From sequence record OZ035773.1: 64,000 bases of DNA. One strand, given 5' to 3'. This DNA is from Justusliebigvirus VEcB. Each line of letters starts with the position of its first letter. The stretch's first letter is position 1. The notes under the pieces are model-generated. The model saw only the letters and a list, made by a program, of their open reading frames with translations. It was not told the origin of the DNA and did no database searches. A program made the position numbers and the translations under genes. Positions 19,979-56,386 of this stretch are shown piece by piece.

Positions 19979-20791
19979 TTATTTAGTCAAATGATCTTCT
20001 ATCATTTTTATGAAAGCAGGATTGCTAAAAGCATCTGCGGCCTTTTCTCGATAAACAAAAACTCCTCTATCTTCGTAAAGAAGAGTTTCTTCGTAATTAA
20101 TTCCTGGGTTAACAACAATCATTTTTGTACCCATACTAAGTGCAGGGAATAATTCCCAATTAAAATTGATAACTTGGTTTGAACATCCTACTACAACAAC
20201 CAAATCTTGCATGGTCAAAGTATCAAACAAGTGATCCATATCTGCATACAAAGGTGCAGCCTCACCAAAAAATACAACATTAGGCTTCACCCAGTTATAA
20301 TCATCTATGTTTATACTATTGTAACCAATGTCTACCAGTGTTTTGTAATCTCCAGGATGCATACGGTAAACTACTTCAGGAAGATATCCGTGCACGTGGA
20401 TAACAGAATCCCTGTCTACACCTGCTCGCTCTAGTAGATCATCAACGTTTGTTGTCAAGTTTACTACTTGGTTAGGATATTCCTTAAACCACTTTGCTAT
20501 TTGAATATGTGCAGCATTAGGTTGTACATCTTTAAGCTCAACACGTCTTTTGTTATAAAATTCGTGTGTTTTGGCATACAAATCCATACCGTTTTCGTCT
20601 ACACCACCAACCACTGGAAGATCTGGTGATGTTCTCACACGATAACCTGCTTGGAAAGCTCCAATATCGCAGATCTCTTCTAAATCCCATTCTTCCCATA
20701 GGGCACGACCACTATCTGTGTCTGTTCGGAATGTTCGAATCCCACTGTCTGCACTTAAACCAGCTCCACTAACAAAAATTACTCTTCGCAT
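19979..20791 (-). CDS. Sir2 (sirtuin) family protein
   Basis: GAGLSADSGIRTFR Rossmann motif, TTNVD, HVHG, FFGE, VVVGCS; no zinc-ribbon cysteines. Confidence 0.75.
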   Translation of the reverse strand: MRRVIFVSGAGLSADSGIRTFRTDTDSGRALWEEWDLEEICDIGAFQAGYRVRTSPDLPVVGGVDENGMDLYAKTHEFYNKRRVELKDVQPNAAHIQIAKWFKEYPNQVVNLTTNVDDLLERAGVDRDSVIHVHGYLPEVVYRMHPGDYKTLVDIGYNSINIDDYNWVKPNVVFFGEAAPLYADMDHLFDTLTMQDLVVVVGCSNQVINFNWELFPALSMGTKMIVVNPGINYEETLLYEDRGVFVYREKAADAFSNPAFIKMIEDHLTK

Positions 20792-25026: not shown

Positions 25027-25273
25027 TTTCCCAAGGATAATAAGGTCTACGAGGATCGTATGGAGGAGTTACTTCAGGCTTTTTCCAAATCTCCGCTAGT
25101 TGTTTCTTCCATTTATCCCTTGCTGTCTCATTATCTTCATCCAACTGTTCATCATTATCTTTTATTTCTGGTTTTGGAAATAAAAGCTCTTTGACTAACT
25201 CAACATCTTCCGTCTCAATAGTAGTTTCTTTCGTAAGTTCTCCTACTGTTTCTTTAATTGTGATTTTATACAT
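24953..25273 (-). CDS. hypothetical proline-rich protein (106 aa)
   Basis: six-frame ORF; overlaps neighbour so one start is wrong. Confidence 0.35.
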   Translation of the reverse strand: MYKITIKETVGELTKETTIETEDVELVKELLFPKPEIKDNDEQLDEDNETARDKWKKQLAEIWKKPEVTPPYDPRRPYYPWEIGSPWFTYPITPIVNPIVTPNITC

Positions 25274-26019
25274 TAGTCCTCCTCTAAAGTAGAATAAAAT
25301 TGTAACGTATTTGAATCATCAAAATATGCAAAGGTTAAATTACCATTGAAGCAAGATCCTGTGTCCATATATACCCTATTACTGCTAATCACAGGTTTAG
25401 GAACATAAGAATGTCCGTGAAATACATAATCTACTCCTGAAACCCTAGGAAGAAGAATCCCTTCAAGTGCGCAATCTATCATATCACGATCCCACATTAA
25501 AGATTCTGTGAATCGAGAAACTTGCTCTTTATTCATATTCAAACAAAATGGCAAAACTTCTGTCACTGGTAAATGTTCCAAAACTGAAGGATACCCACCG
25601 TGAATAAAGCCTAGTTTCATATTACGATAATTGACAACAAGTACAACAGGTAAATCTTCTAGCATCAAAGCAAGAGCAGTTGCACCCTCTTCTCCACACT
25701 CGTCTAGAACTGTATGGCCTCCGTTCTGAAACCAACATTCGTAATATCGTCTATCACCTTCTAGCAACCCTTTAATCATCATATCTTCATGATTTCCACG
25801 AATACCATAACGATTTAGCTTTCTGGTGAATTCAACAACACAACGAAAATTCTGCTTGCCGCGATCTGTAAGATCTCCTAAAGATACAACAACATCTTGA
25901 TCTCGGATACCTAAAGTATTAACACCTTTCTGGTACAAATCAAAACAACCATGTAAATCACCAATAATAAACAGGTCTTGATCATCTTTTACACTAATTT
26001 CTTGATATACTAGCATCAA
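25273..26019 (-). CDS. Ser/Thr protein phosphatase (lambda-type metallophosphatase)
   Basis: GDLHG, GDLTDRG, GNHE motifs. Confidence 0.8.
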   Translation of the reverse strand: MMLVYQEISVKDDQDLFIIGDLHGCFDLYQKGVNTLGIRDQDVVVSLGDLTDRGKQNFRCVVEFTRKLNRYGIRGNHEDMMIKGLLEGDRRYYECWFQNGGHTVLDECGEEGATALALMLEDLPVVLVVNYRNMKLGFIHGGYPSVLEHLPVTEVLPFCLNMNKEQVSRFTESLMWDRDMIDCALEGILLPRVSGVDYVFHGHSYVPKPVISSNRVYMDTGSCFNGNLTFAYFDDSNTLQFYSTLEED

Positions 26020-47929: not shown

Positions 47930-48652
47930 TTAAGCAATGATTGCTGCGATATTAGGTTTAACAAAGGTAGATGGTTTCATAATTTTACCTTTGTCATCAA
48001 AGAATACGTACACCTTTTGAACTTCGTTATATACAGCATGTACCCCAGTATAAGAACCTTCTGCACGATCTTTGCTTCGCATCTCGATAGCATCGCACTC
48101 TTTTTCAAGAGCTTCAATAATATCCTTAGTTTCCCAAATAGCCAGGAGTTGCTTCTTGGTAGGATACTTGGACTCATTGCTATTCAACACTTCACGCATA
48201 ACCTTCTTCTCGTTATAAACAGAACGCACCAAAGTATCTCGTGCCATACGGGTAAGTGTAAGAGACATTAAGGCAAATTGCAAGTCATTTTCTACCATTT
48301 TATCAAATTCAATGATAACATCGTAAATGTTTTCTGCCAGAACATCTCCTGTCGGCATTTCCAGAGCTTTATCAACACCTTCTTTACCAAAGAACATAAA
48401 TGCCAGATAGGATGCTACCACAAAAATATCTGCTGCTGCATCAAGTAATTCAACGTGATCATTTTCCTGTGCTGCTGCTTGAAACTCTTTAAGTTCTTCT
48501 CGTACAAAAGAAAGTTGAGCTTCAAACATCTCTTGAGTAAATTCTGGGGTTACTCCACCGCGTGCCTTAGCATTCCAAGCAGCAATTTGATCGGCAGCTT
48601 TGATAAAGAAGCTATTGTCCACTTTTACTTGTTTGAAAAAATTCTCGATCAT
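47930..48652 (-). CDS. MazG-like nucleoside triphosphate pyrophosphohydrolase (possible dCTPase/dUTPase-like)
   Basis: E-E...LLDAAADIFVV all-alpha NTP-PPase motif. Confidence 0.55.
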   Translation of the reverse strand: MIENFFKQVKVDNSFFIKAADQIAAWNAKARGGVTPEFTQEMFEAQLSFVREELKEFQAAAQENDHVELLDAAADIFVVASYLAFMFFGKEGVDKALEMPTGDVLAENIYDVIIEFDKMVENDLQFALMSLTLTRMARDTLVRSVYNEKKVMREVLNSNESKYPTKKQLLAIWETKDIIEALEKECDAIEMRSKDRAEGSYTGVHAVYNEVQKVYVFFDDKGKIMKPSTFVKPNIAAIIA

Positions 48653-48661
48653 TGTTTCTCC

Positions 48662-48868
48662 TTATTTAAAATATTGTTCTAACAAAACACTAATGCGAAC
48701 TACCGATTCGCCCATATACGCCCCAGCACAGAGGAAAACAACAAATCTACAAAAATTGCAGTACCATTTGTCCACTGGAAACGAGGCTAACATTATAATT
48801 GCAATAGCAATTAACATCATAAGAACTGTTACTAATACCATATTACCTCTTACTCTGCTGGTTCCCAA
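48662..48868 (-). CDS. small membrane protein (68 aa)
   Basis: hydrophobic VLVTVLMMLIAIAIIML. Confidence 0.4.
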   Translation of the reverse strand: MGTSRVRGNMVLVTVLMMLIAIAIIMLASFPVDKWYCNFCRFVVFLCAGAYMGESVVRISVLLEQYFK

Positions 48869-50013
48869 GTACCTGGAATCATCTTACGTAAACGGACACC
48901 TGTTGGTTTCGTAGGTATTCCACCATCGGAAAACTCTTCATACTCAATCTCAACAAATTTACCAATTAACATTTCGGCATTTTCTGCTTTACGATAGTTA
49001 ATGGTTTCATCTGAATCCTTACGCATCAGGAATTCGACTACTTTACCATTTTCCATCTCGCCTGTCAATACCCCGTCACCATTTTTATCACGCTTTGCGC
49101 TTACCACTTTAACTTCAAGCGTCTGACGTGGTTTACGTTTAATAACATCATAAGAACGTTTATCAAACTCGTAAACACCTTGTGCGTTACGATACACCAC
49201 ACCTTCCGCTTTCTCACGTAGAGCTTTTGCATAGAAAGCATCAAACTGTTCTTGGTTTTCAATGTACTCTGTATGTACTACACAAATAAGTTCATCTAAA
49301 CCTTTATCTTCAACAACGTCTTTTAGAGCAGCCAAAACTTCAACCCTCTTCTCAAATGGTACAGATGGCACAGGAACATCATATACATAGTATTTAAGAA
49401 GCGGAGTGTTAGCATTATGCTTTTTCCACGCACTATTAATTTGTTGAAGGCTAAGGACACCCAAACCAGCAAAAACTTCACCGTCAAGAGGATGACCAAC
49501 TACTTCTTTAATGAAGGTTGGAATTTCTTTCCAGTGAGGTGGAAGTTTATATACTTCCCCAGCTTTAGATAAACATTCACCTTGCATGTTAATCATTGAA
49601 CGTAGACCATTCAATTTATATTGTGCATAACCTGGGAACAAAACACGATCAGCATAATCTTTATAATCCTGACATTTCATGGGTGTGGAAGGAACATGGT
49701 TTTCAGCTTCCTCTTTTGTTTTATAATACCCATTCTTAAGTTGTTTTGTCCATTTGGCAAGAGCTTCTATTTCAGCTTGTTCTTCTGCTGTTGTTTCATT
49801 TGAGCGACCAATATTTTTAGGTTCTGCTGTATAAGATTTGCTAGTAATCTTTCCACCTAATTGACCATGAGCAACAGTTACAACACTACCTTCGGTATAG
49901 ACTGACCACTGTTTAATTTTACCTGTAGAAGTTTTACCATACAATGTAGGATTAGTTTGTTTCATCTTTAACCTCCAGTTGAGAAAGAACCCATTTAGCC
50001 ATTTCAATTTCAC
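48850..50013 (-). CDS. ATP-dependent DNA ligase (start may be internal)
   Basis: YKLNGLR adenylation motif K-x-N-G-x-R; nucleotidyltransferase plus OB-domain size. Confidence 0.75.
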   Translation of the reverse strand: MKLKWLNGFFLNWRLKMKQTNPTLYGKTSTGKIKQWSVYTEGSVVTVAHGQLGGKITSKSYTAEPKNIGRSNETTAEEQAEIEALAKWTKQLKNGYYKTKEEAENHVPSTPMKCQDYKDYADRVLFPGYAQYKLNGLRSMINMQGECLSKAGEVYKLPPHWKEIPTFIKEVVGHPLDGEVFAGLGVLSLQQINSAWKKHNANTPLLKYYVYDVPVPSVPFEKRVEVLAALKDVVEDKGLDELICVVHTEYIENQEQFDAFYAKALREKAEGVVYRNAQGVYEFDKRSYDVIKRKPRQTLEVKVVSAKRDKNGDGVLTGEMENGKVVEFLMRKDSDETINYRKAENAEMLIGKFVEIEYEEFSDGGIPTKPTGVRLRKMIPGTWEPAE

Positions 50014-50155
50014 CGTGTAGTCTGCCTAGTTCATAGGCATCATCAATATTACCACCAGTGTAATCATCCACCATAAAGTAAGGATCTTCACTACTGTTAG
50101 GCGCGTTTGCAATTCTCGTTAGTTCTTCAATAAATGTCATAGTTAACCTTACCAA
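49952..50155 (-). CDS. hypothetical protein (67 aa)
   Basis: six-frame ORF. Confidence 0.4.
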   Translation of the reverse strand: MVRLTMTFIEELTRIANAPNSSEDPYFMVDDYTGGNIDDAYELGRLHGEIEMAKWVLSQLEVKDETN

Positions 50156-50373
50156 TTATACACAAGAGTTTGAATTTCTTCCATCAAGTCTTCAAGATCT
50201 GTATCAACATATTCAGAAGATGTTGCCATAAAGTATGTAATCATTGTGAACCCTTCAGAAGAAAGGGCATCAAGAATATCATTAAACATATCTTCCATTT
50301 CAGTATTCTCACCAAACGAGAATAACATTTGTTGATCTTCGCTTACACCTTTAACATAGATAGCTGTACTCAT
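50149..50373 (-). CDS. hypothetical acidic protein (74 aa)
   Basis: six-frame ORF. Confidence 0.4.
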   Translation of the reverse strand: MSTAIYVKGVSEDQQMLFSFGENTEMEDMFNDILDALSSEGFTMITYFMATSSEYVDTDLEDLMEEIQTLVYNW

Positions 50374-50376
50374 ATA

Positions 50377-50697
50377 TTAATCCTTAAGACGTTCATTTAA
50401 ATCTGCAATAACATCACCTAAATCTTCACATTCCAGTGTTAATTCTGAAACTTGTCCACTCAAATAACAAACTTCTTCATTTAGATCTGAAATAATGTTT
50501 TCTAATGAATCTACTTGGTCATCATATGAACGTTTTGTTTCTTCAAGGTCTTCCATAAGACTATCAATCAAATGCAGCAAAGATAAGATATAGCCGTCTC
50601 CTGTCTCGTTCCTCCACTCACTTCCGTAGCGATAAATAATAATTTCACCATTATCGACTACTGTAAAATACTTACCTTCACCAGAATAAATTTCCAT
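50377..50697 (-). CDS. hypothetical protein (106 aa)
   Basis: six-frame ORF. Confidence 0.45.
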   Translation of the reverse strand: MEIYSGEGKYFTVVDNGEIIIYRYGSEWRNETGDGYILSLLHLIDSLMEDLEETKRSYDDQVDSLENIISDLNEEVCYLSGQVSELTLECEDLGDVIADLNERLKD

Positions 50698-50706
50698 ACA
50701 CTCTCC

Positions 50707-51111
50707 TTATTGTAGCTTAAGTGAACTGCGAAGACGTTTTTCTTGCTGATCACGAATATGTTGTGGAACCTCATGAATTGAATCGTTACCGTGCCTATTC
50801 TCCACAACTAAAGAAATAACTTGATAACCAAACTCTTCAGCAAGAGTTAAATAAGGTTTAAGTTCTTTTTCTGTAGTAGAGGTATTAGAAACAATAATCT
50901 TTTCAACACCATACTGCATATATTTTTGTACTTTGACACGACACCATTGGTGTGCTTTATGGATATTCTCTTGTTTCCACTCATACACACCATCTTCAGT
51001 GTAGTGGTATTGATCTGCCTCACAAATAGGCCAATGATTTTCAGAGATAATTTCTGCTACTGTAGATTTACCTGCACCTGAAACACCACGTAAAATGATA
51101 AGTTGTTTCAT
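50707..51111 (-). CDS. P-loop kinase (polynucleotide 5'-kinase-like)
   Basis: Walker A GVSGAGKST; size and position next to ligase and phosphoesterase. Confidence 0.55.
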   Translation of the reverse strand: MKQLIILRGVSGAGKSTVAEIISENHWPICEADQYHYTEDGVYEWKQENIHKAHQWCRVKVQKYMQYGVEKIIVSNTSTTEKELKPYLTLAEEFGYQVISLVVENRHGNDSIHEVPQHIRDQQEKRLRSSLKLQ

Positions 51112-52044
51112 TTAGCCTCCAAAGAAGTTTTCTATTTCTTTACGTCGCTCTTGTGGATCGAGAGTAGCCCATTGAGCCTTCGTAAATTTATTTCGAAGCC
51201 ATTCTAGCAAAGTATAATATTCTTCGTCAACAATTTGTTTAGCATTGTTTGGGTTGTCCCAAATCATATCCCACTTCTTATTGCCACCACGCATAAGGAA
51301 TTTCTTAGCAAGATAGTATGGTGACTTAATCTTTAAGAGTAAGTTAAACGGATAGTTTGTTTCACGAACAACAAAGCCTTCGTGTCTACAATGTTTAGAC
51401 ATTTCAACAACATCTGAAAATTTAATCATCGGATAAACTTCAGGACGTTTAAATTTTGTAATAGATGCAATCCCATCAAGAACACCTTCAGGTAACATGA
51501 AACTTGTCCCATCAAGATTTTGAATTCTTGCTCCAATTAAGTATGCGCCTGGTTCTTCTTCGACAATATGTGGATCAGAAGGATCACAGATTTCAAAAAG
51601 AAAAGTTGCTTTTGCACTTTCTGTCCACTTAATGAAATACTCTATATCGTCACACTCGGAAACAATACGGTTCTTTGCCATAATTGCGAAATCTGATTCT
51701 AGGCTCCCTGTTGTTGATACAACAAGTTTCCCTTTGTACACACCTACAGATGCCATAAAACCGTTTACTTTACGGGCAGCATCTACAATTTCGTCTGCTG
51801 GAAGATCTGTACCATTTTCAAAACGATTAAAGATTTTAGTAAAAGGCCAAATAACAACATTGTCTTCTGAGTCAACAACCAACCCACGACAATCTAAAAG
51901 TCGTTTGTCAACGTTCCACAAGTTATCCCAGAATACATTGTTTTTGTATTTAAGTACAGCAAGACCAGCATACTCTCCAGATTTAACTTCTTTTTTATGC
52001 ACTAAACCTTTTGCAATCAGGTCATCACAATTGAACTTAGCCAC
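51112..52044 (-). CDS. RNA ligase (T4 Rnl1-like)
   Basis: LLDCRGLVV resembles T4 Rnl1 ALECRGIMF; KVNG nucleotidyltransferase motif I; EGFVVRE. Confidence 0.55.
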   Translation of the reverse strand: MAKFNCDDLIAKGLVHKKEVKSGEYAGLAVLKYKNNVFWDNLWNVDKRLLDCRGLVVDSEDNVVIWPFTKIFNRFENGTDLPADEIVDAARKVNGFMASVGVYKGKLVVSTTGSLESDFAIMAKNRIVSECDDIEYFIKWTESAKATFLFEICDPSDPHIVEEEPGAYLIGARIQNLDGTSFMLPEGVLDGIASITKFKRPEVYPMIKFSDVVEMSKHCRHEGFVVRETNYPFNLLLKIKSPYYLAKKFLMRGGNKKWDMIWDNPNNAKQIVDEEYYTLLEWLRNKFTKAQWATLDPQERRKEIENFFGG

Positions 52045-52045
52045 C

Positions 52046-52597
52046 TTAATCTCCTTTGATTATCTTATGATGATCTACAACAATAATATCACGCTTATCC
52101 ATAATAGAGATGATTTCGTCAAAATGCAAGATTTTCCCGTGTGCATCCCAACCAACATCCAACATTTTCCCATACAAATGATCAGGGAATGATCCGTGAG
52201 AGTGTCCGTGTAGCATGATTGATCCATGCCCTTGTTTATTCCAGGCAGCCATAGGGTAATGACTTAAGACGAAGAACAGCTTCTTATATTTCACTTCGTC
52301 ATAATACACAACTTCTCCATACTCTGCAAGCATTTTTCGGTGTTTGCTATAATCGTGATTACCAACAATAAACGTAATATCACCTTGCAAACGACAAGCA
52401 ATTTTACGTGTATCTTCTTCGGTTCCGAAACAGAAGTCCCCAAGATGGTACATCTTTACTCCTGGTGTTGTGGCACATTTATTCCATGCTTCGATCAGTG
52501 CTTCTGTCATATGCTCCATATCTTCCCACGGGCGATATTCAGGAGCAAACTCTCGGATACGTTTGTGCATAAAATGCAAATCACTTGTAATAAACAT
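52046..52597 (-). CDS. calcineurin-like metallophosphoesterase
   Basis: DLHF, GDFCFG, GNHD motifs. Confidence 0.7.
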   Translation of the reverse strand: MFITSDLHFMHKRIREFAPEYRPWEDMEHMTEALIEAWNKCATTPGVKMYHLGDFCFGTEEDTRKIACRLQGDITFIVGNHDYSKHRKMLAEYGEVVYYDEVKYKKLFFVLSHYPMAAWNKQGHGSIMLHGHSHGSFPDHLYGKMLDVGWDAHGKILHFDEIISIMDKRDIIVVDHHKIIKGD

Positions 52598-52959
52598 TAG
52601 TATAATCCCTCGCTGAATAGTTCACTGTTGTGACCATTTCTTTCGTAGTTAATTTGTTTGGCGTTATCTGCAATGATATAAGCATCTTTGCGACTCCACC
52701 AGTTATAATACTGATCAATAAACCCTTGATTATCAGGTAAGCAAAACAGTTTATCAATCAATCCTGCATCTTTTAAAACATTAAGTTGTGCAGATAGTAC
52801 AGGATTTGCATGCCTAACACAAGGAATAATTAACTCTTCGCCATTATTGAGAATATACTTGTTCGCAGCGCAGACTATAACACGTTGAGCATAGTGATCC
52901 TCACCAATCCAAGTAAGAGGTTGGTAACAAATATCATGTTGATTAGTAGCGCACATCAA
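52597..52959 (-). CDS. hypothetical protein (120 aa)
   Basis: six-frame ORF. Confidence 0.45.
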   Translation of the reverse strand: MMCATNQHDICYQPLTWIGEDHYAQRVIVCAANKYILNNGEELIIPCVRHANPVLSAQLNVLKDAGLIDKLFCLPDNQGFIDQYYNWWSRKDAYIIADNAKQINYERNGHNSELFSEGLY

Positions 52960-53113
52960 TTTTCTCCATACTCTTTTAATCTATCAGCGAAAAACTGTAA
53001 TCAGGAAGTAAAAGATCATTACTCGTATCGCTACAGTTTTCTTCCTCTTTATAGATAAAATGCCCTTCATCCTCTTCTTGCTCTGACCAAACTGAGTAAT
53101 GCATAATACCTAC

Positions 53114-53488
53114 TTAATAGTTAACACGTTTAATTTCAACACCATAGGATGCAATAAAATTTTCCTTAGCTAACATATATTTACTAGCAGCAGAAGGATT
53201 TGATGTATGAACATAGATAGTTTTAAGAGCATCCCATTCACCTGCGTACAACATACATTCTACATCTAAGAACGCATGATAGCCTTCTTGATCTTCTCCA
53301 AGATCATTATCGAAGTGTATTTCTGAGATATTATTGAAATTATCTTCATCTGAAACAAAAGATGACCAATCCCCAAAAGATTTTAACCAAATGGCATCCT
53401 CATAACCATAATCTTTAGGATCTCTTAAATCGTCTAACCAAAGAATTTTAGCCACTATCAACCCCCTTCCTGTTTCTCTTCTTTCCAA
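53114..53488 (-). CDS. hypothetical protein (124 aa)
   Basis: six-frame ORF. Confidence 0.45.
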   Translation of the reverse strand: MERRETGRGLIVAKILWLDDLRDPKDYGYEDAIWLKSFGDWSSFVSDEDNFNNISEIHFDNDLGEDQEGYHAFLDVECMLYAGEWDALKTIYVHTSNPSAASKYMLAKENFIASYGVEIKRVNY

Positions 53489-53649: not shown

Positions 53650-53927
53650 TATTTATTCCTTTTGTTGTTGATCACATCTAAAGCTGTATAAGGTTTGTTT
53701 GTACCGCTGTATTCAAGAATAATTGGTGCATGTTCATAGACAAACTCAAAAGTACCATACACAGAATCTGCAACTGAAATAAGCATTTCAGTGCCTTCAT
53801 CGTTCTTAATTAATGAAAACCTTGCCCCTGGTTTATTGAGCACTTCATATTTCTTACCTACTGTCAGCAAACCTGAATACCATTCATTTTGCACAACAGA
53901 CAAACACTTCAGGTAGGTTTTTCTCAT
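53649..53927 (-). CDS. hypothetical protein (92 aa)
   Basis: six-frame ORF. Confidence 0.45.
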   Translation of the reverse strand: MRKTYLKCLSVVQNEWYSGLLTVGKKYEVLNKPGARFSLIKNDEGTEMLISVADSVYGTFEFVYEHAPIILEYSGTNKPYTALDVINNKRNK

Positions 53928-54265
53928 TTCTTTTTGCTCCTTCTTTTAGGCTTCTCGTATAAACCTAACACAGCCGATTCTTTTGCGCAAATAGGAACTG
54001 ACTTCATCCCTCGTTTTTTAGCTTCTGGTAGATTCAAAACCCACCAACCAAACCAATACAATTCATCTTCTGTGAAAGGATCTGCCATAGGATCTGCATC
54101 ACGTTCTTCAAATTTAGCAAGAGCTTCTTCTATCTTTTCTATTGGAGTATCAAAGACAAAAGCCTCTGTGTCAAATTTTTGTTTCTTAGGAGCGGCCTTT
54201 GCCGCCCCATCTTTAGATGCGTGCTTTGTTACGGATCGCTTCTTCGGTGTTTTCGCCATCAACAA
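53924..54265 (-). CDS. hypothetical protein with basic termini (113 aa)
   Basis: K-rich N and C termini. Confidence 0.45.
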   Translation of the reverse strand: MLMAKTPKKRSVTKHASKDGAAKAAPKKQKFDTEAFVFDTPIEKIEEALAKFEERDADPMADPFTEDELYWFGWWVLNLPEAKKRGMKSVPICAKESAVLGLYEKPKRRSKKK

Positions 54266-55492: not shown

Positions 55493-56386
55493 ATGAAAGT
55501 TAGTATTCTACATGGTGTTGACTGTTATGTTACTGATGTAGACGTTAAAGTCTTTACATTCTCTGGTGGAGAACAACATGTTCAACTAGATACGAATCTA
55601 TCAGGTTTCAATCATGCTACAGACAGAATCTTACTTACTTTAGAAGTAAGATCTGCTAAAGACTTGATGACTTTGGTTATGATTAAGAATGCATTGGACA
55701 ATATGCTATATCATAAACCATATTGTGTCGATTTGCTCATGTTGTATGTGCCATATGCACGACAAGACAGAGTGTGTGAGCCTGGGGAAGCATTCGGAGT
55801 TAAAGCCTTTGCTTCTATAATTAATTCATTAAATTTCTCACGTGTTATCGTTGCTGATCCACATAGTGATGTTACTCCAGCAGTGTTTGACAGACTCTGT
55901 GTAATACCTCAAGAAGAGATTGCTTACGAAACTTTAAAGTGGAAGTTACGTATGGAGAATTTTGCTCTTGTTAGTCCTGATGGTGGTGCTCTTAAGAAAA
56001 TATTTAAATTATCTAAGAAAATGTCTTTAGATGTGTTCTGTGCAGAGAAGGTTAGAGATACTGCAACAGGTGCTATTGTTCGTACAGACATTTCTGTACA
56101 GGATTTCAATAAGCGTAACCTGATGATCGTAGATGATATCTGTGACGGCGGTAGAACTTTTATTGAATTGGCTAAAGTGCTACGTGCTCGTAACGCAGGT
56201 AAGATTGAGTTATATGTTACACACGGTATCTTTTCTAAAGGTCTTAAAGAGTTAAGTGAGCACTTTGACTGCATTCATTCTCTTAATGTGTGGGAAGATA
56301 ACATCCAAGAAGATTCCGGTGTTCTTGTTAAGAATCAGTCAGATTTGCAACAACAAATTGTATCTCCATACGTGTGGAATTTTTAA
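55493..56386 (+). CDS. ribose-phosphate pyrophosphokinase-like protein (Prs/Adps-type)
   Basis: PRPP-binding loop LMIVDDICDGGRTF; Prs-like fold. Confidence 0.8.
   Translation: MKVSILHGVDCYVTDVDVKVFTFSGGEQHVQLDTNLSGFNHATDRILLTLEVRSAKDLMTLVMIKNALDNMLYHKPYCVDLLMLYVPYARQDRVCEPGEAFGVKAFASIINSLNFSRVIVADPHSDVTPAVFDRLCVIPQEEIAYETLKWKLRMENFALVSPDGGALKKIFKLSKKMSLDVFCAEKVRDTATGAIVRTDISVQDFNKRNLMIVDDICDGGRTFIELAKVLRARNAGKIELYVTHGIFSKGLKELSEHFDCIHSLNVWEDNIQEDSGVLVKNQSDLQQQIVSPYVWNF

Follow-up and report, generated by a model that had tools for sequence, protein, structure and literature searches.

A three-gene cassette of Justusliebigvirus VEcB is very probably a phage RNA heal-and-seal repair module

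To our knowledge, a counter-defence role of RNA repair has been demonstrated by experiment in no phage other than T4. The T4 kinase/phosphatase Pnkp (PseT) and the RNA ligase Rnl1 (RnlA/gp63) repair tRNA that has been cut by a nuclease (PMC9503650). A further arrangement is described by computational prediction, the sirtuin-linked RNA-repair neighbourhood type 2, with Escherichia phage V5 and Proteus phage Mydo as its prototypes (Iyer, Burroughs, Anand, de Souza and Aravind 2022, PMC9503650). A cassette of three genes was analysed here, at positions 50707-52597 of a 64,000-nucleotide stretch of Justusliebigvirus VEcB (sequence record OZ035773.1), referred to below as the window. The genes encode a kinase, an RNA ligase and a metallophosphoesterase (MPE), and together they are very probably a phage RNA heal-and-seal repair module of three separate enzymes. 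The cassette is real, and it is already known both as annotation and as a published comparative-genomics prediction. The record of Escherichia phage EmilieFrey labels the cassette genes 'polynucleotide kinase', 'RNA ligase' and 'putative phosphoesterase', and that of phage Paula has 'putative RNA ligase /RNA repair'.

The interval holds exactly three complete, abutting open reading frames, all on the minus strand (Table 1). This agrees with the three adjacent genes reported in a preliminary description of the sequence, and the identities given there, a P-loop kinase, an Rnl1-like ligase and a calcineurin-type phosphoesterase, all hold on family, profile, fold and motif evidence. The stop of a 120-amino-acid (aa) upstream gene overlaps the start of the MPE gene in the sequence TAATG. 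The TAA stop of the MPE gene is followed by a single base and then the GTG of the ligase gene, with AAAGGAG shortly upstream of it. The TAA of the ligase gene directly abuts the ATG of the kinase gene, which is preceded by GGAGG. A GGAG-type ribosome-binding site is present at each of the three starts. No minus-strand terminator-like site was found from 55255 to 48711 in the promoter and terminator scan, which is itself uninformative for terminators (5 terminator-like sites vs 3.9 expected). The co-expression supposed in the preliminary description fits such tight packing, from which we infer that the three genes are co-transcribed. Approximately 4 kb around the cassette are 96-98.5% identical in nucleotide sequence to Escherichia phages Eryne, inny, EmilieFrey, phi92 and others, which are phi92-like members of the genus Justusliebigvirus (Stephanstirmvirinae).

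The conserved linkage of the three genes in permuted order, together with domain fusions, is the main reason to believe that the three proteins act together. From IMG/VR, 80 loci, mostly at 40-50% identity, were recovered by means of the ligase alone. Of these loci, 71 carry the kinase, on the same strand in 70 and within 150 nucleotides in 45, and the MPE is present in 64, on the same strand in 63. Two permuted gene orders are seen, MPE-ligase-kinase in 36 loci and kinase-ligase-MPE in 20. This grouping is more than chance. The trio is also found in Pseudomonas phage K5 (Pakpunavirus) and, beside tRNA genes, in Ralstonia phage RSP15. Among the homologues of the MPE, one with an MPE that is 55% identical (P0241) is fused to the RNA_ligase domain PF09414, and two others (P0267 and P0276) are fused to HAD_SAK_2, the 'Swiss Army Knife' RNA-repair HAD domain. 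The N-terminal positions of PHROG 8238 ('RNA ligase', 737 positions) match the kinase and its C-terminal positions match the ligase. The joint end-healing and sealing role that had been proposed for the trio is supported by the linkage and the fusions.

In the RSP15 record (LC121084.1; locus L083, 3932-4867), the ligase homologue is annotated as 'metallophosphoesterase', which is probably an error. It is preceded by a gene labelled 'NEDD4-binding protein' that is probably the kinase.

The ligase matches the Pfam family RNA_lig_T4_1 (PF09511) with E 6.2e-14 and 52.8 bits, above the gathering cut-off of 28.3, and PHROG 562 with E 6e-68. A single-sequence search of the PDB returned nothing relevant. 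With a profile of 25 homologues, T4 Rnl1 (2c5u, 9do4) was found at E 2.4e-10, and this HMMER search returned T4 Rnl1 only; raising the E limit to 10 added no chain of Trl1, the fungal and plant ligase. The RNA ligase fold, for which profile searches had been recommended, is thereby confirmed. Residues R53, K70, F72, K92, E151, E222-G223, K238 and K240 align to the same residues in T4 Rnl1. Motifs I (K92-x-N-G95), III (E151), IV (E222-G223) and V (K238-x-K240) are invariant in the 25 homologues and then in all of 72 distinct members of the subfamily recovered from viral contigs. The motif I lysine, on which the preliminary description had made the identification depend, is therefore present as K92. 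Upstream of motif I, R53 and K70, aligned with R54 and K75 of T4, are kept in 72 of 72 members, and position 72 (F77 in T4) is Phe in 66 and Tyr in 6. Arg54, Lys75 and Phe77 of T4 Rnl1 have an essential role.

The AlphaFold2 (AF2) model of the ligase has a mean confidence score (pLDDT) of 90.9. In a Foldseek search with this model, the LIG domain of fungal Trl1 and T4 Rnl1 are the top matches and are equally good (E ~1e-13, TM ~0.63), with Rnl3, Rnl2, Rnl5 and DNA ligases far behind (DNA ligases at E >= 7e-6) and no Pnkp ligase in the top 50. The C-terminal domain is short and all-helical, with approximately 70 aa after motif V compared with about 130 in T4 Rnl1, whose tRNA-specificity domain has roughly 120 aa. 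Positions that are invariant in the subfamily and differ from T4-type Rnl1 are N94, D157, H159, K248, R252, E274 and E275. The label of PHROG 562, 'tail fibre attachment' (T4 gp63), was set aside as an inherited T4 annotation; nothing supports it here, and the linkage is with end-healing enzymes.

The kinase matches Pfam AAA_33 at E 1.8e-10, above the curated cut-off, and PHROG 2071 at E 5.9e-58. The best solved relatives of a 23-sequence kinase profile are Capnocytophaga Pnkp1 (4xrp, 2.9e-5), Clostridium thermocellum Pnk (CthPnk; 4gp7, 7.8e-5) and T4 Pnk (1ly1, 9.5e-5), and the alignments with CthPnk and T4 Pnk span the full length of the kinase. With the AF2 model (pLDDT 86.6), the top 22 Foldseek matches are all CthPnk or T4 Pnk, with TMq 0.73-0.79. 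The invariant residues of the family are the Walker A motif G9-x4-G14-K15-S/T, D33 and R106. These align with the P-loop of T4 Pnk, the catalytic Asp of its 'NRDDY' and the Arg of its 'KRGTKAVP'. At 134 aa the protein is a kinase domain only, and the fused HAD (DxDxT) 3'-phosphatase domain is absent. Since there are NAD-salvage genes nearby, a nicotinamide riboside kinase was considered (Nrk1, E 1.6e-4). This was rejected because that match covers residues 2-40, the P-loop only, and the matches to T4 and Cth Pnk are full-length and predominate among the fold matches. In PADLOC the kinase had no more than a weak P-loop match and the other proteins tested had none, and NCBIfam gave no usable assignment for any of six proteins tested.

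The kinase gene also differs in its divergence from its surroundings. In two environmental relatives that are otherwise 95-100% identical (loci L003 and L004), it is only 85-86% identical, with flanking genes at 92-99%. This comparison suggests local mosaicism at the kinase gene.

The MPE falls below the cut-off for Pfam Metallophos_2 (E 2.3e-4, 21.6 vs 27 bits). Its place in the superfamily nevertheless holds because of its match to PHROG 547 (E 3.7e-55), the match of its family profile to a solved structure, and the conservation of its motifs. An exhaustive search found 11,734 cluster representatives at E <= 1e-3. In 29 diverse homologues D6, G53-D54, G79-N80-H81-D82, H113 and G131-H132-x-H134 are invariant, and at least 90% of the sequences have H8 as the His of DxH, the other four motifs of the binuclear site being invariant. 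Searched against the PDB, the family profile matches aq_1665 (1xm7), an uncharacterised Aquifex MPE, at E 1.1e-24 and then GpdQ, with no Pnkp or lambda-phosphatase chain at E <= 0.01. Within the superfamily, 2',3'-cyclic phosphodiesterase activity has been proven for CthPnkp and lambda phosphatase (PMC2190708).

A second MPE of 248 aa is encoded elsewhere in the window (25273-26019, minus strand; PF00149, E 2.9e-13) and is NinI/lambda-phosphatase-like in the annotation of phage Eryne. By analogy with the activity of lambda phosphatase, it could also bear on RNA end healing.

Taken together, the three enzymes could repair RNA as follows. Cleavage by a metal-independent ribonuclease would produce one end with a 2',3'-cyclic phosphate and one with a 5'-OH. 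The MPE would open and remove the cyclic phosphate, perhaps with the help of a protein encoded upstream that consists of a cyclic-phosphate processing Receiver domain (cREC). The Pnk-like kinase would phosphorylate the 5'-OH, with a nucleoside triphosphate as donor. The Rnl1-fold ligase would then be adenylylated on Lys92, pass the AMP to the 5'-phosphate and join the RNA ends. The end to be sealed would carry a 2'-OH, as in T4, or a 2'-phosphate, as in Trl1. The most likely substrate would be tRNA broken in the anticodon loop by defence or toxin nucleases of the host, in which case the module would be a counter-defence alongside the 16 tRNA genes of the phage itself. The neighbourhood type has been predicted independently as RNA repair (PMC9503650).

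Some observations weigh against this. The counterpart of T4 Pnk Arg38, which contacts the polynucleotide phosphate, is not conserved in the kinase; this position, three residues after the Asp, is occupied by His36 here and by His or Phe across the family. It is the only misfit in the catalytic site, and because of it the phosphate acceptor of the kinase could differ. Among solved structures, the MPE is nearest to the uncharacterised Aquifex protein and a glycerophosphodiesterase rather than to an RNA end-healing enzyme. The T4 Rnl1-type C-terminal domain, which confers tRNA specificity (PMC11404444), is absent from the ligase, the hhalign alignment to T4-type sequences ending at query residue 246, and tRNA is only a probable substrate. 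The promoter scan was no better than shuffled sequence (35 sites vs 29.4 expected), so that the argument for co-transcription is one of gene spacing only. Lastly, full-text literature searches aimed at the module found no biochemical or genetic study of it.

The preliminary description was limited to the trio, which it identified correctly. It missed the cREC gene, the upstream gene of unknown function, the MazG-like gene, the sirtuin, the NAD-salvage genes, the tRNA array and the Trl1-like features of the ligase (Table 1). The cREC protein is predicted to be a metal-independent cyclic phosphodiesterase, a function proposed for the family by Iyer et al. 2021 (PMC7824862) and also in PMC9503650, and is a probable accessory of the repair module. 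Of 82 loci, 12 have a cREC gene at most 6 kb from the ligase. In the Pharokka-style annotation of a near-identical phage the cREC protein is called 'nudix hydrolase', which looks like a mislabel. The 120-aa protein, for which no Pfam, NCBIfam, PADLOC or significant PDB match was found, is limited to close relatives, with just 5 of 82 loci having it in the vicinity of the ligase, and is a possible accessory gene. The 113-aa protein may be a further component of the module; in L005, a related rV5-like locus, the gene for its homologue and the start of the MPE gene overlap. The MazG-like gene is a recurrent neighbour in the enterobacterial relatives and is found in 14 of 82 ligase loci.

The order of genes in locus L005 is MPE, two unknown genes, ligase, cREC, kinase, SIR2 and DNA ligase. 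In the window, the SIR2 gene is 30 kb from the cassette on the same strand, among the last genes of a long minus-strand block. This sirtuin clade is found in 982 phage records, many of them from Salmonella phages and with T5-like phages included. On the other side of the cassette, and divergent from its block, are genes for a pair of enzymes of NAD+ salvage, ribose-phosphate pyrophosphokinase (Prs) and nicotinamide phosphoribosyltransferase (NAMPT). Of the 80 IMG/VR loci, 32 have a Prs homologue no more than 6 kb from the ligase, and in Pseudomonas phage K5 the genes for ligase, kinase, Prs and NAMPT are contiguous.

Table 1. Coordinates of the cassette genes and of neighbouring features in the window.
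Feature	Position	Strand	Remarks
MPE (binuclear metallophosphoesterase), 183 aa	52046-52597	-	proposed 3'-end healing: 2',3'-cyclic phosphodiesterase and/or phosphomonoesterase
ATP-dependent RNA ligase, 310 aa, GTG start, Rnl1 fold	51112-52044	-	proposed sealing enzyme
P-loop polynucleotide 5'-kinase-like protein, 134 aa	50707-51111	-	proposed 5'-end healing
120-aa protein	52597-52959	-	PHROG 839 (function unknown), E 3.9e-47; stop overlaps MPE start
cREC (cyclic-phosphate processing Receiver domain)	53114-53488	-	PF20274, E 1.9e-13, 51.3 bits vs cut-off 27
113-aa protein, lysine-rich ends	53924-54265	-	no family match; kept in 16/82 ligase loci
ATP-dependent DNA ligase	48850-50013		downstream of cassette; in 27/82 loci
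MazG-like nucleotide pyrophosphohydrolase	47930-48652	-	Pfam PRA-PH, E 3.2e-7; PHROG 671, E 3.3e-28
SIR2-family protein	19979-20791	-	Pfam SIR2, E 1.7e-22; 54% identical to L005 sirtuin
Ribose-phosphate pyrophosphokinase (Prs)	55493-56386	+	Pfam match; divergent from cassette block
Nicotinamide phosphoribosyltransferase (NAMPT)	56458-58191	+	Pfam match; NAD+ salvage pair with Prs
16 tRNA genes	58938-62135	+	ARAGORN; ~7 kb from cassette; include Lys(UUU), Tyr, Asn, Gln, Thr and four with CAT anticodon

It is possible, although unlikely, that the chemistry is that of Trl1. The cREC protein or the MPE would then open the cyclic phosphate so that the end has a 3'-OH and a 2'-phosphate. The ligase would require this 2'-phosphate and leave it at the junction. 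The sirtuin or a host KptA would remove it with NAD+ supplied through Prs and NAMPT. In Trl1 the 2'-phosphate site comprises a His at +9 from the Glu of motif III and a pair of Arg past motif V (PMC11404444). All 72 of the phage ligases have KxNG in motif I and an invariant His159 eight residues past the motif III Glu (E151), where T4-type Rnl1 has KEDG and Ile. When the subfamily is aligned by hhalign to real fungal Trl1 LIG sequences (Prob 92.6, E 4.7e-7, 224 columns), His159 falls on the His of 'CDDSFEEHIL', and the alignment extends approximately 40 residues into the C-terminal domain, beyond the point at which the T4 alignment stops. Past motif V, two further residues are invariant, K248 (+8 from K240) and R252 (+12). 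However, hhalign puts the fungal RxxR (RQWR) in a six-residue gap and not on these two residues. By E value the subfamily is also nearer to T4 Rnl1 (7.7e-10, Prob 96.5) than to Trl1, and T4 Rnl1 is all that HMMER finds in the PDB. T4-type sequences and Trl1 align with each other over only 71 columns (Prob 38.9). Because the subfamily aligns to both, this ligase clade of the phi92, rV5 and Pakpunavirus type bridges T4 Rnl1 and eukaryotic Trl1. The Trl1-type signature of the ligase is the only new point of this analysis.

The genes around the ligase speak both for and against Trl1 chemistry. The sirtuin follows directly after the kinase in locus L005 and has its homologue in the window, and the cREC and NAD-salvage genes recur near the ligase. 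MPEs are able to give a 2'-phosphate product (PMC2190708), and a sirtuin with KptA-like action has been proposed (PMC9503650). On the other hand, just 11 of 82 loci have the sirtuin at 6 kb or less from the ligase. Among phages, the distribution of the sirtuin clade coincides only in part with that of the ligase subfamily: the ligase is in 175 Pseudomonas records, a genus outside the ten commonest of the 34 in which the sirtuin occurs, and Salmonella records with the sirtuin number 289 against 15 with the ligase. No Tpt1/KptA is annotated across the region in a 98.5%-identical phage. We also know of no sirtuin that has been shown to remove an RNA 2'-phosphate, which counts against this chemistry as well. 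If the ligase did require a 2'-phosphate, these phages would run a yeast-like pathway of tRNA ligation, and the use of NAD+ in removing the phosphate would explain why NAD-salvage genes recur beside the module. Such a pathway could, in addition, be what bacterial KptA and the phage sirtuins are for.

It is improbable that the module serves the RNA metabolism of the phage itself, in the maturation or maintenance of its 16 tRNAs, in that of other transcripts or in the general repair of RNA damage, rather than acting against anticodon nucleases. The cassette does lie within a long block of genes for nucleotide and nucleic-acid metabolism, with the tRNA array 7 kb away, and the ligase is without the C-terminal domain that gives T4 Rnl1 its specificity for tRNA (PMC11404444). 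Yet ARAGORN reports no intron in the tRNA genes, and the wide, patchy spread of the module across unrelated phage groups is typical of conflict genes. In addition, the repair of nuclease-cut tRNA in T4 is the only experimentally established role of a phage kinase/phosphatase and Rnl1 (PMC9503650). It is very improbable that DNA ends, not RNA, are the target of the three enzymes, which would then act together with an ATP-dependent DNA ligase whose gene is 700 bp downstream, in the manner of the PdeM/Lhr systems that are associated with ligases in bacteria. In favour of this reading, the MPE weakly matches the ligase-associated phosphoesterase PdeM (TIGR04123, E 4.8e-4, far under the cut-off), the DNA ligase gene (48850-50013) recurs in 27 of 82 loci and T4 Pnk acts on DNA too, with structures solved with bound single-stranded DNA, but the 310-aa ligase belongs to an RNA ligase family (PF09511) and has RNA ligases as its best structural matches (DNA ligases at E >= 7e-6), the homologues of the MPE are fused to RNA-repair domains, and the DNA ligase is a separate gene that is missing from most of the loci carrying the trio.

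The three-gene version of RNA repair is far more widespread than that of T4. The ligase subfamily is found in 691 phage records, among them phages of Escherichia, Pseudomonas, Vibrio, Streptomyces and Acinetobacter. The cassette is also present in phages of a model collection, the locus tags of EmilieFrey being prefixed bas61. What is at stake is whether repair, in addition to a supply of spare tRNAs, lets many phages evade defences that cleave tRNA.

The preliminary description considered the arrangement to be more like the bacterial Pnkp/Hen1 systems, which is true at the level of the MPE superfamily and not beyond it. In the Pnkp/Hen1 system of Clostridium thermocellum and the Pnkp1-Pnkp2-Rnl-Hen1 system of Capnocytophaga, the 3'-end healing enzyme also comes from the MPE superfamily. 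The kinase of phage VEcB is structurally closest to CthPnk and by profile closest to Pnkp1. However, the MPE belongs to another family, one without detectable kinship to the Pnkp/lambda phosphatase clade beyond the motifs of the superfamily, and the ligase is Rnl1/Trl1-like rather than Pnkp-type. No methyltransferase domain was found in the flanking genes scanned, and in the 98.5%-identical phage no methyltransferase is annotated near the cassette, the only ones being DNA methyltransferases 20-28 kb away. Because there is no Hen1, the proteins are unfused and the clades of ligase and MPE differ, the cassette is not a Pnkp/Hen1 system.

With fungal and plant Trl1 (LIG-KIN-CPD), the cassette would share the combination of a kinase, an Rnl1-related ligase and an activity that opens cyclic phosphates. 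The ligases have in common the KxNG of motif I, a His past motif III that aligns to the 2'-phosphate-binding His of Trl1, and a short all-helical C-terminal domain, and the Foldseek scores for Trl1 equal those for T4 Rnl1. The activities are on three separate proteins in the phage and on one in Trl1. No 2H cyclic phosphodiesterase domain was detected here, the phosphoesterases being the MPE and the cREC protein. The kinase is T4/Cth Pnk-like, and the Arg-Arg pair of Trl1 is not aligned.

The likeness to T4 is one of function. The same three chemical functions are predicted for the cassette, the ligase shares the nucleotidyl-transferase domain of Rnl1 with all of its motif residues, and the kinase has the fold of T4 Pnk (TMq ~0.75). 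In T4, however, the phosphatase is a HAD domain fused to the kinase, whereas in phage VEcB it is a separate binuclear MPE. The genes form one tight cassette here, while the neighbours of the ligase gene in the T4 record are denA and alc, and neither a kinase nor a phosphatase gene adjoins it. The ligase has KxNG in place of KEDG, the invariant His past motif III and a C-terminal domain of only ~70 aa, and by its sequence is without the defining C-terminal domain of the Rnl1 clade. The absence of a HAD domain and the lack of conservation at the Arg38 position of the kinase place the module outside the T4 Pnkp family, although it would work like T4 Pnkp and Rnl1.

The closest likeness is to the type 2 neighbourhood. 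The components predicted for it (PMC9503650) are a T4-like tRNA ligase, cREC, a nucleotide kinase, MazG and, optionally, a calcineurin-like phosphoesterase, and in phage VEcB all five are encoded within 47930-53488. The related locus L005 has the full arrangement, including the sirtuin, with cREC between the ligase and the kinase rather than upstream of the MPE as in phage VEcB. Here the sirtuin is outside the cassette. The cassette is a member, minus the adjacent sirtuin, of a type of neighbourhood that has already been published as a prediction.

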